A program made the translations under genes and the position numbers. 30,708 bases of DNA. It comes from a virus. Its lineage: Duplodnaviria > Caudoviricetes. Below the pieces are notes generated by a model that was not told the DNA's origin, searched no databases, and saw nothing but the letters and a program-made list of their open reading frames with translations. Location: positions 1 through 30,708 of IMG/VR virus record IMGVR_UViG_3300020043_002006. One strand, given 5' to 3'. Positions 2,437 to 29,132 of this stretch are shown piece after piece. Position 1 is the stretch's first letter, and each line of letters begins with the position of its first letter.

Positions 2437-2461
2437 GGGTGGTGTAAAAGCCACCCTTTTT
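2437..2461 (+). terminator. Rho-independent terminator
   Basis: GGGTGG/CCACCC stem followed by T5. Confidence 0.75.
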
Positions 2462-2474
2462 AAATTAAACAATT

Positions 2475-2672: not shown

Positions 2673-2891
2673 ATGAAATTATTTGAAGATGATTGGGGTG
2701 TAGATAATTCGCCAATAGATAATACTGAAATAACAACTACACTTTTATATTTTAGTACAGAAGAATTAAAAGAGTTTAAGGCATTATGCAAAAAAGGCAT
2801 AAGAAAAGAGTTTAATGAACAATACCAAGTAAAAGGTAATTTAAGCGATTTATTATTAATCATTTTAAGAGAAAAGTATGGAAACCTATAG
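2673..2891 (+). CDS. Small protein coupled to the TET gene (possible accessory/DNA-binding factor)
   Basis: 72 aa; overlaps TET start by 14 nt; acidic N-terminus then strand-helix-helix-like pattern. Confidence 0.65.
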   Translation: MKLFEDDWGVDNSPIDNTEITTTLLYFSTEELKEFKALCKKGIRKEFNEQYQVKGNLSDLLLIILREKYGNL

Positions 2892-3744
2892 ATTAAAAAA
2901 GCAATTAACCGACGAGCAAACTGCAGCGTTAAAAGGAAAGTATTTAAACGAAAAGCATTACGATACATTAATAACAGGTGATGCAGATGGTTACGATTCA
3001 AATGGTCGCCTTTTGTTTAAGTTTAGAAAAAACGCTATACCTATGGAAACTTTAAAACTTGGTGTAGATTCTTTTAAAGATAGTATTGAATTAACTGAAA
3101 GTAGGGGTATTGCAAGTGGCAGCAGCCACAAGCGTATAAGAAAAGATGGTTCAGTAAGTAACATAACAGTAGGTAACAAAGTTGAAAGTGGTAGCGTTGG
3201 TTATATGGATTCATCAGCTATGGTTAAATATTGTCGTAAAACTGCTTTTGCTAAAAACTATTTTGACAAGTTTACTGCAGGAATACCTTTTGTAAAATTC
3301 ATAGATAAAAAATATGAAGAATTGTGTCCTGAGCATTATGCAAAACAAATAGCAATAGCAAAAGGTACTAACAAAAATTATGTAATAGACAATACTGCTT
3401 TTACTACAATTACAGTTAACAAAAACTTTAGAACTGCAGTACATCAAGATGCAGGTGATTATCCTGATGGTTTTGGTAATTTAATTGCATATCGTGAAGG
3501 CGATTGGAAAGGTGGTTACTTTTGTTTACCTCAATACAAAGTAGCTATTGACTTACAAAACACCGATATTCTTTTTGTTGATGTACACAAATGGCACGGA
3601 AATACTGATTTTATAAACACTGATGATAACTTTTTACGAATTAGTTTTGTTTTATACTATCGTGAGTATATGTATAAGTGTAGCCAACCACAAGAAGAAC
3701 TACTTAAAATGAAAATGGAAAAAACAGGTTACTTAAATTTATAA
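2878..3744 (+). CDS. TET/JBP-family 2OG-Fe(II) dioxygenase (5-methylpyrimidine oxidase)
   Basis: TTITVNKNFRTAVHQDAGD (HxD), GGYFCLPQY, VHKWHGNT (distal His), RISFVLYYRE (2OG-binding Arg). Confidence 0.88.
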   Translation: METYRLKKQLTDEQTAALKGKYLNEKHYDTLITGDADGYDSNGRLLFKFRKNAIPMETLKLGVDSFKDSIELTESRGIASGSSHKRIRKDGSVSNITVGNKVESGSVGYMDSSAMVKYCRKTAFAKNYFDKFTAGIPFVKFIDKKYEELCPEHYAKQIAIAKGTNKNYVIDNTAFTTITVNKNFRTAVHQDAGDYPDGFGNLIAYREGDWKGGYFCLPQYKVAIDLQNTDILFVDVHKWHGNTDFINTDDNFLRISFVLYYREYMYKCSQPQEELLKMKMEKTGYLNL

Positions 3745-3746
3745 TT

Positions 3747-4511
3747 ATGGAACAATTAAATATATTCATACCAAGTAAAAACAGGGTTAATAATTCTACA
3801 CTATTAACTTTTGCTGAAACACAAAACGAAAAAATAACAATAGTTGTAGAACCACAAGATTATGAAAATTACTACAAAAAATTTCCAAATTTTGAATATT
3901 TAATTCTACCAATTAATGATGGTGGTATTACTTACGTAAGGAATTTCATAAAACAATATACAGAAGAAAACTCAATAAGTACTTATTGGCAATTAGACGA
4001 TGATTTAACAGGGTTTTTTAATAGAGAAGGAACAAAGTTAATCAGAACAGGTTTTGAAGCTTTATATTCAGCACAATTACAATTTAAATCAAATAAAATT
4101 GCTTTAGGTTCTTTGGAATATAGGCAATTTGCTTGGTCAGCAAGTAAAGAAATAATTTTAAATAGTTTTTGTGATTCTTGCGTTTATGTTGACAATTCAA
4201 AAATTACAGGTTTAAGGTATAGGGATTATGTATCAGGCAAAGAAGATAGGGATTTTGCTATGCAAGTAATTAAATTTGGGCAAACCACAGGTAGAACAAC
4301 ACTATATGCTTTTTCTGCTCCACCAAATGGAAGTAATGCAGGTGGTTTAAAAGAAACTTTTTACGATTTAGGAAAAGAAAAAATAGCAGTTGATAGAATG
4401 GTTGAATTATGGGGTGACCAAATTTGTGTTCCTATTGTAAAAGAAAGCGGCAGGAACGATATAAAAATTATGTGGAATAAAATAAATTCAACGCAAACAA
4501 GTTTATTTTAA
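3747..4511 (+). CDS. TET-associated glycosyltransferase (TAGT, GT-A fold)
   Basis: IFIPSKNR, IVVEPQD, GITYVRNFI, WQLDDD (DxD), KEDRDF, NAGGL; 2 nt downstream of TET. Confidence 0.82.
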   Translation: MEQLNIFIPSKNRVNNSTLLTFAETQNEKITIVVEPQDYENYYKKFPNFEYLILPINDGGITYVRNFIKQYTEENSISTYWQLDDDLTGFFNREGTKLIRTGFEALYSAQLQFKSNKIALGSLEYRQFAWSASKEIILNSFCDSCVYVDNSKITGLRYRDYVSGKEDRDFAMQVIKFGQTTGRTTLYAFSAPPNGSNAGGLKETFYDLGKEKIAVDRMVELWGDQICVPIVKESGRNDIKIMWNKINSTQTSLF

Positions 4512-4519
4512 TAAATAAC

Positions 4520-4527
4520 TATATTTG
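4520..4527 (+). promoter_or_regulatory. Bacteroidota-type -7 element upstream of ATPase/MTase
   Basis: TATATTTG 13 nt before ATG 4541. Confidence 0.5.
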
Positions 4528-4540
4528 CAAAAAATAAACA

Positions 4541-5392
4541 ATGACAGAACAAGAAACAATTAATAGGATGTTAATGCAAGTAATTGAAGAAGATTGCTAC
4601 ATTGACCCTGAACAAGAAATAGAATACCCAATACCTGCTATTAGTTGTGGTGAAAAAGAATACGAAACTAAAGATGGTTATAAATCTTTCCCTATTCCAA
4701 TAGGTACTTATGGTAACTTTTCATTTATACAAGCACCACCAAAGAGCAAAAAAACGTTCTTTATTTCGCTTTTAAGTGGTGTTTATATGAAAAATGAACT
4801 ACAAGGTTTTGGTGGTAATTTAAGAGGTAATAGACAAAATAAACACGTTATACATTTTGATACTGAACAAGGGAATTTCCACGCATCAATGGTTTTTAAA
4901 AGACCATTACAAATGACAGGCGATAAAGATGACAAATACCATACTTACGCATTACGCCAATTAGGATTTAAAGAACGTGTATCTTTTATTGAATATATAC
5001 TTTACGATAAATTAGAAGGTAACGATATTGGTTTAGTAATTATTGATGGGGTTGCTGATTTATGTGCTGATGTTAATAACATAGAACAAGCAAGTGAAGT
5101 TGTACAACATTTAATGCGATGGTCAAAGGAATTAAATTGCCATATTGTAACAGTTATTCACTCAAATTTCGGTACTGATAAACCAACAGGGCATTTAGGT
5201 AGCTTTTTAGAAAAGAAAGCAGAAACACAAATACAATTAGAACTAAACACAGTTAATAAAGAACTTGTTAAAGTAAGTTGTAAAAGAAGTAGAAACGCAA
5301 GTTTTGAAGATTTTAACTTTAAAGTAAACAATTTTGGATTGCCTCAAGTTGAAGGTGATTTATACGATATATTAAAAGATATAAAAATATGA
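4541..5392 (+). CDS. AAA+/RecA-fold ATPase, probable replicative helicase (RepA/AAA_25-like)
   Basis: Variant Walker A APPKSKKT, HFDTEQ, Walker B LVIIDG, VIH, GHLGS. Confidence 0.75.
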   Translation: MTEQETINRMLMQVIEEDCYIDPEQEIEYPIPAISCGEKEYETKDGYKSFPIPIGTYGNFSFIQAPPKSKKTFFISLLSGVYMKNELQGFGGNLRGNRQNKHVIHFDTEQGNFHASMVFKRPLQMTGDKDDKYHTYALRQLGFKERVSFIEYILYDKLEGNDIGLVIIDGVADLCADVNNIEQASEVVQHLMRWSKELNCHIVTVIHSNFGTDKPTGHLGSFLEKKAETQIQLELNTVNKELVKVSCKRSRNASFEDFNFKVNNFGLPQVEGDLYDILKDIKI

Positions 5393-6255
5393 TAGTATTA
5401 AGTTTATTTAATGGAATGAATACAGGCAGACAAGCATTGGAGAATGTCGGTATTAAAGTAGATAAATATTATTCAAGCGAAATTAAACCTTACGCTATTG
5501 AATTAACACAATATCATTTTCCTGATACTATACAAGTTGGTGATGTTACTAAATGGAGAGAATGGGATATAGATTGGAAAAGTATAGATTTAGTTTTATC
5601 AGGTTCACCTTGTCAAGATTTATCAGCAGCAGGTAAAAGAGCAGGAATAAATGGTAAAAAATCAAGTTTATTCTTTACTTTTGTTGAAATATTGGAACAT
5701 ATAAAATCTTTAAATCCTAATGTATTATTTCTTCAAGAAAACGTAGGTAGTGCATCAAAATTAGACGTTGGTATTATGTCGAGAGCATTGGGTGTTTATC
5801 CTGTTAGAATTAATTCGAGTTTAGTTACAGCTCAATTAAGGGATAGATATTATTGGAGTAATATAAGAACAAAAGAAGATGGTATGTTTGGTGATATTAT
5901 TACAGATATACCACAACCAAAAGATAAAGCAATAATGTTTAAAGATATTATCACAAGTGGTCAAGTTAAAAGAGATAAATCCCTTGCTTTATTAGAAAGA
6001 CAATCGTTTACTTATAAAGATAAATTTTCATTAAATGCACAAAAATTTTTAATAGAAAGAGAAAAATTTGGAACTAATTTAATTTATGAAGATAAATATA
6101 TTAGAATACCAAATAAAATAGAAATGTGCAGACTACAAGGTTTTCCTGATAATTATTGTGATATACTTACAACTGCAAAAGCAGGTAGTCTTTTAGGAGA
6201 TGGTTGGACTTTACCAATAATAGAACATATTTTTAGCTTTATAAATAAATGTTAA
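5389..6255 (+). CDS. DNA (cytosine-5)-methyltransferase
   Basis: Motif I LSLFNGMNTG, catalytic GSPCQ, motif VI QENV, motif VIII AQLRDRYYW, LQGFP, motif X LGDGW. Confidence 0.92.
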   Translation: MIVLSLFNGMNTGRQALENVGIKVDKYYSSEIKPYAIELTQYHFPDTIQVGDVTKWREWDIDWKSIDLVLSGSPCQDLSAAGKRAGINGKKSSLFFTFVEILEHIKSLNPNVLFLQENVGSASKLDVGIMSRALGVYPVRINSSLVTAQLRDRYYWSNIRTKEDGMFGDIITDIPQPKDKAIMFKDIITSGQVKRDKSLALLERQSFTYKDKFSLNAQKFLIEREKFGTNLIYEDKYIRIPNKIEMCRLQGFPDNYCDILTTAKAGSLLGDGWTLPIIEHIFSFINKC

Positions 6256-27198: not shown

Positions 27199-28434
27199 AT
27201 GAGTTTATTTGATTCGGCAAGTTTGGTTGTCACGCCTAATGGTACAAAGGCATCTAAATTATACGCTATAAAACCAACTGATGGAAGTGGTGATTTAAGT
27301 GTAACAAGAGCAACAACAGCAACAAGAGTTAATTCAAGTGGATTGGTTGAAAGTGTAGCTACTAATGTACCAAGATTAGACTATACCAATGGAACGTGTC
27401 CGAGTATATTAGTAGAGCCACAGAGAACAAATAGCCAAAGATATTCAGAAGATTTATCTAATGGCTCGTATTATGCAACAGGTAACGCATCAATATCTAC
27501 AAATCAAACTACTGCTCCTGATGGTAATACTACTGCAGATAAGTTAATAGAAAGCAATACAAACGCAAGACACGAACTATACACAGGCTCACTAACTTAT
27601 AGTGGTACAACTTCAATTTCATTTTTTGCTAAGGTAGCAGGTAGAAGATATTTAGCTTGTTTCTTAGGTGGCGACCCATCAAAAGGAGGTGCTATATTTG
27701 ATTTGCAAGGTGGAGTAGTTTCTTTAACAAGTGGAGGCACAACTGCTAATATTCAAAACTTTGGTAACGGTTGGTATCGCTGTAGTTTTACTTCAATTTT
27801 AACGGGTAGTAGTTCATTATATACTTGTTTGAGAACAAATGCAAGTACTGTAGATGTTCAAACTTATTTAGGAGATGGTACTTCAGGTGTATATATTTGG
27901 GGTATGCAACAAGAGTTAACTTCAAGTTATCCTACTTCATATATTCCTACGGTAGCAAGTTCAGTTACTCGTAATGCTGATGTTATTTCTAAAACAGGAA
28001 TAAGTAGTTTAATTGGTCAAACTGAGGGGACTATGTTTTTGGATGTTAATGTAACAAAAGATGGCTCAGGATATTATCCTTTAGGAAATCTAATAGGTGC
28101 AACTTCAAGTATCTACATAGGTATAAATACTTTCATTACAACAGGTAATATTTATGCTGAGATAAGAAACACAACACAACAAGCGTTAATTAGTTCAAGT
28201 ATAAACAGTGGTAGATGTAAAATAGCTTTAGCATATAAGGCTAACGATATTGCTTTATATATTAATGGTAATTTAATAGGTACTGATACGAGTGCTACAA
28301 TTCCTGCTACTTCTGCTTTTAGTTTTGAATACGATGTTAGTATAGGTAATAGAAACACTAAAAATATTAACGATGTTGTACTTTGGAAAACAAGATTAAC
28401 TAATGCTGAGTTAGCAACCATCACAAGTTTATAA
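27199..28434 (+). CDS. Tail fibre/receptor-binding protein with lectin-like beta-sandwich domains
   Basis: TRATTATRVN, PRLDY, LVEPQRTN, GNGWYRC, PTSYIPT, RNAD, LYING (LamG/ConA-like). Confidence 0.65.
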   Translation: MSLFDSASLVVTPNGTKASKLYAIKPTDGSGDLSVTRATTATRVNSSGLVESVATNVPRLDYTNGTCPSILVEPQRTNSQRYSEDLSNGSYYATGNASISTNQTTAPDGNTTADKLIESNTNARHELYTGSLTYSGTTSISFFAKVAGRRYLACFLGGDPSKGGAIFDLQGGVVSLTSGGTTANIQNFGNGWYRCSFTSILTGSSSLYTCLRTNASTVDVQTYLGDGTSGVYIWGMQQELTSSYPTSYIPTVASSVTRNADVISKTGISSLIGQTEGTMFLDVNVTKDGSGYYPLGNLIGATSSIYIGINTFITTGNIYAEIRNTTQQALISSSINSGRCKIALAYKANDIALYINGNLIGTDTSATIPATSAFSFEYDVSIGNRNTKNINDVVLWKTRLTNAELATITSL

Positions 28435-29132
28435 TGGCCGCAGTTTACTTACATAGAAAAGAGTATGATAATTCTATTTATTACGTAGGTATAGGTAATA
28501 GCGAAAAAAGAGCAAGGGAAATTAGAGGTAGAAGTGAATATTGGACAAGAGTATTTAATAAATATGGTAGAAATATAGATATTGTTGCTAATAATATACC
28601 TTTAGAAGATGCAAAAGAATTGGAAATATTTTTAATACAACAAATAGGTATTGATAATTTATGTAATCATACTTTAGGCGGAGAAGGTTTTTTTGGTGGA
28701 AAACATACAGAAGAAACTAAAAGAAAAATAAGCGCCAAATCAAAAGGTAGAATCACAACGAAAGAAACCAAAGCCAAGATAGGTAAAAAGTTAAAAGGTC
28801 ATCAAAATTACAATTTAAGTCATACAGATGAATCTAAAGCTAAAATATCAGCAGCTTTTAAAGGAAAGAAAAGAAGTGAGTATTTTTGCAAACAAGTTAA
28901 AAAATCAAAAATAGGATATTGCCCAAGTAGACAAGCCATAGAAAACGGAGTAAAAAAAAGAAAAGAAAATGCATCTTTAATAATTGAATTGAATAGCGGT
29001 TTTATAGGTAAAATTTGGGAAATAGAAAACAAATTTAATATTGACAGAAAAGCTGTTTATTATAATTGTAAAAAAGAAAAAGCCATTTTAACAAGAGAAT
29101 GGAAAGGGTTGAATTTTAAAAAATATAAATAA
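28434..29132 (+). CDS. Free-standing GIY-YIG homing endonuclease with NUMOD3 repeats
   Basis: VYLH..IYYVGIG..R, E..LI, LCN.T.GGEG, then HTEETKRKIS, TKETKAKIG, HTDESKAKIS. Confidence 0.8.
   Translation: MAAVYLHRKEYDNSIYYVGIGNSEKRAREIRGRSEYWTRVFNKYGRNIDIVANNIPLEDAKELEIFLIQQIGIDNLCNHTLGGEGFFGGKHTEETKRKISAKSKGRITTKETKAKIGKKLKGHQNYNLSHTDESKAKISAAFKGKKRSEYFCKQVKKSKIGYCPSRQAIENGVKKRKENASLIIELNSGFIGKIWEIENKFNIDRKAVYYNCKKEKAILTREWKGLNFKKYK

Follow-up and report, generated by a model that had tools for sequence, protein, structure and literature searches.

Which base a phage might modify with a compact three-gene locus, and what the smallest of the three genes contributes, is the question raised by the virus record IMGVR_UViG_3300020043_002006. 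This is a complete virus record of 30,708 bp with terminal repeats, and its whole length is referred to here as the window. A first-pass annotation had described a tightly coupled trio of a 72-amino acid (aa) open reading frame (ORF), a TET/JBP dioxygenase and a TAGT glycosyltransferase, followed by an ATPase and a C5-methyltransferase (C5-MTase). All five ORFs and all of the motifs that it quoted were found where it had placed them. The trio was organised as follows:

2673..2891, + strand: 72-aa small ORF, a likely mini-activator; homologue of the ParB activator C-terminal domain with a short acidic leader, ribbon-helix-helix (RHH)-like
2878..3744, + strand: TET/JBP Fe(II)/2-oxoglutarate (2OG) dioxygenase, 288 aa, clade C1 type (PF12851); likely converts thymine to 5-hydroxymethyluracil (5hmU)
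3747..4511, + strand: TAGT-family GT-A glycosyltransferase, 254 aa (PF20691, phrog_842); exchangeable slot for tailoring genes, with sugar addition to the hydroxymethyl base as the likely activity

The small ORF and the dioxygenase ORF overlapped by 14 nt. The three genes, whose order, family membership and tight linkage were observed directly, form an exchangeable cassette. Cassettes combining TET with a glycosyltransferase have already been published, as the available text of three reports shows (PMC8256090, PMC13229309, 10.1101/2023.12.21.572611); the small ORF is the new part. Within the papers and supplements covered by a literature search, there was no description of a tail-only partner and no demonstrated phage glycosyl-5hmU. 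Short upstream ORFs were mentioned, in the supporting information available from PMC13229309, only for two truncated contigs.

We lean, cautiously, towards a reading in which thymine is converted to 5hmU and then to a base-J-like glycoside, with the small ORF as a tail-only activator. After replication, the 72-aa protein would dimerise and engage the dioxygenase, which would oxidise a subset of thymines in the finished DNA to 5hmU; TAGT would then add a host-supplied nucleotide sugar to give the glycoside. The post-replicative scheme of oxidation followed by glycosylation proposed in the first-pass annotation therein stands as a prediction from the gene content.

The small ORF and the tail of ParB activators

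Phage thymine dioxygenases were divided into ParB-independent (C2) and ParB-dependent (C1) enzymes by O'Toole et al. 2026 (PMC13229309, available text). The small ORF was not named by Pfam, PHROG or NCBIfam and had no match to the ParB-N profile. When 1727 ORFs were scored with a hidden Markov model built from 111 ParB tails, the first 43 places went to small-ORF homologues, at modest E values (0.0009–0.08). Alignment of a deeper small-ORF profile with the ParB C-terminal profile in hhalign gave a probability of 94% (E 1.2e-7, 52 columns), and 40 column-shuffled controls reached at most 0.86%. The reverse search returned 20 matches at E <0.01 among 2011 ORFs, all of them ParBs (20/111). The homology was visible only in small search spaces and by profile-profile comparison; a word-index search for longer small-ORF homologues returned nothing at E ≤10, and a profile search of 1.8 billion proteins found no match of ParB length. 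The small-ORF family comprised 99 clusters at 50% identity, in 98 of which the protein was 120 aa or shorter; the sole longer member (178 aa) likewise stood before TET and TAGT. A shifted-frame test on the tails of distant homologues was positive for 10 of 28 testable tails (99 proteins). In the monomer model, residues 17–28 were extended and helices spanned residues 29–54 and 57–69. The model had no match in a Foldseek search, and the ESM atlas placed the small ORF among unnamed clusters, with one RHH lead at 0.90 that had a low feature count. Profile comparison marks the small ORF as a free-standing homologue of the ParB activator C-terminal domain.

The gene neighbourhood was analysed in 73 viral loci that were retrieved with the small ORF alone; these included near-identical strains, overlapped a set of 20 close loci described below and had flanks of up to 4 kb. 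TET was the next gene after the small ORF in 72 of them, the remaining locus ending inside the small ORF, and none contained a ParB-N match. Among 38 metagenome loci, many of them the same contigs as in the viral set, TET followed the small ORF in 35. The genomic context of distant family members is known from one locus, L323. More distant C1 enzymes, examined in 80 loci, were preceded, where the upstream gene was complete, by a ParB of approximately 200 aa whose end overlapped or abutted the TET start. The small ORF occupied this same position, directly upstream of and overlapping the TET start, and was conserved about as strongly as the dioxygenase. The ParB nucleotide-binding domain (PF02195) was not found anywhere in the complete genome by a search that was positive in 10 of 14 control genomes.

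Several loci departed from this organisation. Locus L162 (4001–6730) carried two TET genes (62% and 58% identical to that of the window) behind one small ORF, followed by a kinase. At L113 (1987–2235), L018 (4576) and L159, TET was truncated or frameshifted and the small ORF intact, which may be an assembly error. The Pelagibacter phage HTVC112P (L022, 3375–5597) encoded a full ParB, a C1 TET annotated as DnaJ/SNF2 and an FkbM methyltransferase, and represents the ParB-dependent type among cultured phages.

Published truncations of ParB176 bear on what a tail might do without the rest of the protein. In Dataset S7 of PMC13229309, a linker-plus-tail fragment gave 2.0–2.1% 5hmU (3/3) where the enzyme alone gave 0% (4/4), the tail deletion gave 0.16–0.57% and full ParB gave 32–33%. 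Taken with the profile matches, these values suggest that the small ORF is likely a stripped-down, tail-only activator. That the 72-aa protein does activate the dioxygenase we consider somewhat probable.

The closest cultured counterpart was found in Nonlabens phage P12024L, whose genes 25–27 (JQ823123) are the same trio (64%, 72% and 72% identical), followed there by an N6/N4-type MTase. The flanks of the cassette were 97% alike between P12024L (L021, 16,207–18,674) and its sister P12024S (L281, 2409–3951); in the P12024S slot an ATPase/GNAT gene and two small ORFs replaced the P12024L trio and N6/N4 MTase.

The dioxygenase, its substrate and the glycosyltransferase

The first-pass assignments to the TET/JBP and TAGT families were borne out, both matches lying above the curated Pfam cut-offs. 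The dioxygenase matched Tet_JBP (PF12851) at 82.9 bits (cut-off 34.9) and contained the motifs HQD (189), WHGN (239) and RISFVLY (254). The iron triad and the 2OG arginine (H189, D191, H240 and R254) were invariant in 43 sequences. No solved structure matched the dioxygenase by sequence. The predicted model (pLDDT 84) had its best matches among the TET folds (CcTet, TET2, CMD1 and NgTET1; E 5e-11 to 1.5e-8), with FTO weaker (from 4.6e-6).

The C1 enzyme encoded on L197, the contig named for 5mYOX182, shared 43% identity with the dioxygenase, and those of L174 and L209 shared 45% and 49%; the latter two were assigned by eye from C-termini matching 5mYOX176 and ParB176, and ParB185, respectively. 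Identity to C2 enzymes, including that on L274 (the named contig of 5mYOX98), was 28–31%. Two quick trees were built, one from 69 of 242 rows and one from 37 selected rows without two long branches; neither contained a characterised clade A or B enzyme. The relatives of the window dioxygenase formed one clade (Shimodaira-Hasegawa-like approximate likelihood ratio test, SH-aLRT, 100), which grouped with ParB-associated C1 enzymes and was split from C2 at SH-aLRT 100. Nesting of this clade inside the ParB-linked enzymes had a support of 89–92.

Two further features were shared with C1. The dioxygenase had 20 residues after C268, its last conserved cysteine, and an extension of at least 15 residues was present in 77 of 77 matched clade rows; it was shorter than 15 in 6/6 C2 rows and in 36/138 ParB-linked rows. 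According to the available text of PMC13229309, such an extension is found only in ParB-dependent enzymes, and a long insert confers ParB independence on C2; the window dioxygenase had the short C1-type insert. It is, on these sequence features, a TET/JBP enzyme that groups with the clade C1 thymine dioxygenases.

Compared with characterised C1 systems (5mYOX176/ParB176 and 5mYOX185; PMC13229309, available text), the window shared an enzyme of 43–49% identity, the extension and short insert, a partner gene directly upstream that overlaps the start, and the same downstream tailoring repertoire. It differed in that the partner was 72 aa rather than about 200 aa with no nucleotide-binding domain in partner or genome, in that the enzyme fell in a clade of its own with a remodelled loop, and in that the usual next gene was TAGT and not a glutamine amidotransferase. 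The 'No ParB' members of C1 (Fig. S4 of PMC13229309, as available) are likewise C1-type without an annotated ParB, the criterion being PF02195. Some of these were inactive alone in the portion available of PMC8256090, and the accessible text of PMC13229309 describes some ParB-less C1 members as inactive for unclear reasons. Clade C2 (5mYOX89, 97 and 98) shares with the window the thymine substrate, here predicted, and frequent glycosyltransferase neighbours; it differs in its 28–31% identity, separate clade, long insert, absence of the C-terminal extension and absence of an upstream partner.

The first-pass annotation had left the substrate open between a 5-hydroxymethylcytosine (5hmC) and a 5hmU route. 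Both routes were considered, and the balance has moved to thymine because the cassette and the C5-MTase are unlinked and the dioxygenase falls with clade C1; thymine is probably the substrate. Modification is probably partial and sequence-selective, by analogy with tested relatives.

The glycosyltransferase matched Pfam TAGT (PF20691) at 71.6 bits (cut-off 27.5) as well as phrog_842, and was 72% identical to P12024L_27. It contained the motifs IPSKNR (8), LDDD (83) and KEDRDF (165), with R13, D84–D86 and E166–D167 as key residues and EDRDF instead of the described EDY/F. The available text of 10.1101/2023.12.21.572611 describes GT-A motifs common to phage DNA glycosyltransferases and the trypanosome JGT, and the motifs of the window TAGT resembled this set. 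The reaction path predicted here, from T through 5hmU to a glycoside, is the same as that of trypanosome base J (JBP1/2 and JGT), which we set alongside by description; here the genes are those of a phage and include a stand-alone small partner.

Tailoring genes were counted in the 66 loci that had at least 1.5 kb of downstream sequence. TAGT was present in 56 loci, in 55 of which neither a kinase nor an amino-acid:DNA transferase (AADT) was found; of the others, seven carried a P-loop kinase, two a kinase and an AADT, one all three and one none. AADT matches were above the Pfam cut-off and kinase matches below it; genes of both kinds are linked to T-hypermodification in the available text of PMC13229309. 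TAGT was the sole tailoring gene in the window and in P12024L. Given thymine, direct transfer of the sugar onto 5hmU is reasonably probable; the sugar is not predictable from the genome. The modification probably serves in defence evasion or packaging, we infer.

In L012, L013, L014, L107, L117, L161 and L162, TET was followed by the P-loop kinase with no transferase within the fetched flank, and the pathway at such kinase-only loci may end at a phosphorylated base. Separately, a 151–155-aa ORF without a Pfam or NCBIfam family lay behind TET in 37 of the 66 loci (for example L003, 5800–6255); it was absent from the window.

Neighbouring genes and the rest of the window

The cassette was bordered by the following features:

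2437..2466, + strand: hairpin resembling an intrinsic terminator, upstream of the slot that holds the cassette
4520..4527, + strand: TATATTTG, a possible Bacteroidota -7 promoter element before the ATPase; right edge of the cassette
4541..5392, + strand: AAA_25 ATPase/helicase-like gene, 283 aa (Pfam); phage backbone, outside the cassette
5389..6255, + strand: C5-cytosine methyltransferase, 288 aa (Pfam DNA_methylase); own variable slot, outside the cassette

The ATPase matched AAA_25 at 32.8 bits (cut-off 27) and the C5-MTase matched DNA_methylase at 95.4 bits (cut-off 22). In related phages the C5-MTase was not linked to TET and TAGT. Any C5-MTase was present within the fetched flanks of just 3 of 72 small-ORF/TET loci. 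Among 20 close viral loci, 10 showed the slot behind the ATPase, which held this MTase in one, a different C5-MTase in two and none in seven; the locus with the same MTase had it several kb from its own cassette, and in other relatives the ATPase was several kb from the cassette. A joint between 5383 and 6247 skipped the MTase gene in contigs of three of four sequencing runs. Contigs in two runs separately skipped or replaced the trio slot, with joints ending at 4536–4541. The MTase family was found in 753 phage records, and tblastn with four queries detected no C5-MTase anywhere in P12024L. Just 6% of mined pathways carry a C5-MTase according to the available text of PMC13229309. The C5-MTase is a bystander, independent of the cassette.

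The pathways of clades A and B (C5-MTase/TET/glycosyltransferase), as described in the available text of PMC8256090 and 10.1101/2023.12.21.572611, are likewise post-replicative, with GT-A glycosylation and host sugar donors; they depend on a linked GpC methyltransferase, whereas the MTase of the window is unlinked. The sole C5-MTase-linked TET among cultured phages, which is uncharacterised, was just 23% identical to the window dioxygenase.

The -7 element that the first-pass annotation had placed at 4520 is present as TATATTTG, but it is weak by itself: the pattern TAnnTTTG, which we took to be the Bacteroidota -7 consensus, had 21 matches on the + strand of the first 15 kb. The fuller TATATTTGC also directly preceded two ORFs, those at 883 and 9455. 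A sigma-70 promoter scan was at chance level (22 vs 27.5), and four terminator-like sites were found in the window against 1.2 in shuffles. A 64-aa ORF (2475–2669), which separates the terminator from the small ORF, fell within the variable slot as delimited by the read joints, and also stood upstream of the cassette in several relatives.

Among the ORFs scanned (30 with Pfam and 35 with PHROG, a set short of one 109-aa ORF and most of those below 100 aa), there was no gene for a polymerase, no thymidylate-synthase-like gene and no sugar-nucleotide gene, in agreement with the first-pass annotation. A homing-endonuclease-like gene (phrog_314) was located among the tail genes (28,434–29,132). 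A Bacteroidota bacterium is the likely host: the Nonlabens phage P12024L has the trio, and a contig from a Bacteroidota genome has the small ORF together with TET. Neither dinucleotide nor k-mer counts pointed to a modified sequence context. The sites CATG, GATC, CTAG and CCAG/CTGG were each absent from the window (1–30,708), against about 100–130 of each expected under a Markov model; the avoidance of these four sites was largely common to close relatives, P12024L excepted.

Alternative readings and what the cassette would mean

A number of observations weigh against a base-J-like pathway with a tail-only activator. The ParB176 tail-only fragment reached about 6% of full activation (PMC13229309, Dataset S7). 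The main text of that paper, as available, reverses two of the ParB176 truncations, assigning 0% to loss of the nucleotide-binding domain; one of the two, text or dataset, is mislabelled, and the support drawn from the linker-plus-tail fragment is conditional on this. The same text reports that a TET-ParB complex could not be trapped and that, in vitro, 5mYOX176 oxidises 5-methylcytosine (5mC) and T about equally well. A TAGT in T6-like phages is thought to add a second sugar and not the first (PMC13390438, available text). Within our own data, hhalign with shallow alignments reached just 17%, 60% and 67%, and the best folds for the small ORF (MazE9, AmrZ, VapB12 and TraM) were middling (Z 3.5–4.0, root-mean-square deviation 1.9–3.2, 43–47 residues). 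An approximately unbiased test did not reject the ParB-linked enzymes as one clade (p 0.295), and loss of the nucleotide-binding domain is therefore not shown. The RxxR loop motif was absent from 69/69 rows of the window clade and kept in 122/128 ParB-linked rows, counts that include duplicates. Because of this missing motif and the long stem of the clade, its substrate or activation may have changed. Blanket protection from restriction by the modification is doubtful, since the genome still lacks CATG, GATC, CTAG and CCAG, an absence which argues against reliance on the modification at those sites.

Three other readings were weighed against these facts. In one, thymine is still converted to 5hmU and glycosylated, and the dioxygenase works alone, the 72-aa protein being an RHH autoregulator, an inhibitor or timer, or a remnant of translational coupling. 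RHH repressors and antitoxins are indeed the best folds of the small ORF, ParB176 without its nucleotide-binding domain retained little activity in Dataset S7, the TET clade has the remodelled loop and long stem, and at L162 two TET genes share one small ORF. Set against this are the residue-level homology of the small ORF to the activator tail in the same gene position, its retention beside TET in 72/73 loci regardless of genomic slot or downstream gene, conservation about as strong as that of the enzyme, and an insert of the C1 type and not the C2 type that confers independence; a promoter-like TAnnTTTG stood within 70 nt upstream in just 4 of 56 distinct upstream regions. We regard a dioxygenase working alone as unlikely, though it deserves to be taken seriously.

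Two readings that change the chemistry seem to us improbable. A 5mC route, in which a neighbouring or host C5-MTase supplies 5mC for oxidation to 5hmC by TET and glycosylation by TAGT, would account for an MTase with recognisable motifs 0.9 kb from TAGT; C1 enzymes are capable of 5mC oxidation in vitro (PMC13229309, available text), and phage GT-A enzymes are proven on 5hmC in the available text of 10.1101/2023.12.21.572611. Yet a C5-MTase occurred in only 3/72 loci and behind the ATPase in 3/10 close loci, was skipped in three of four runs and was lacking from P12024L, where the cassette neighbour is of the N6/N4 type; the MTase family is spread across many phages (753 records), and the C5-MTase-linked TET of cultured phages is only 23% identical. 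Alternatively, thymine might be oxidised and TAGT might require a prior sugar or phosphate, possibly from a host enzyme, or move a group other than a sugar, leaving no simple analogue of base J. The annotation of a TAGT in T6-like phages as the second-sugar enzyme (PMC13390438), the finding that the first glycosyltransferase gene behind 5mYOX can encode a second-sugar enzyme (10.1101/2023.12.21.572611; both from the text available) and the presence in some relatives of two glycosyltransferases or of kinase, AADT and TAGT together (L004, L127 and L139) are in keeping with such a requirement, against which TAGT is the one tailoring gene of the window and P12024L and 55/66 loci are TAGT-type without kinase or AADT.

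If thymine glycosylation with a tail-only activator is correct, it bears on three questions left open in the available text of PMC13229309: by what means ParB acts, whether the nucleotide-binding domain is a vestige, and why some ParB-less members appear inactive. A natural and widespread tail-only partner makes these three questions testable with a three-gene construct. Glycosylation of phage 5hmU has been proposed and not demonstrated in the portions available of the literature found; if TAGT does glycosylate 5hmU, a base of the base J kind would exist outside eukaryotes. The pair P12024L and P12024S, from one host and with and without the cassette, makes both the base and its effect measurable, and a small two-part thymine oxidase could serve as a DNA-labelling reagent. 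As a tentative wider proposal, held with less than even confidence, a large lineage of Bacteroidota phages may run a thymine dioxygenase with a 72-residue RHH mini-activator; the tail and not the CTPase fold would be what activates, unannotated small ORFs would explain inactive ParB-less C1 enzymes, and TAGT would give a phage base J that could be read in P12024L.

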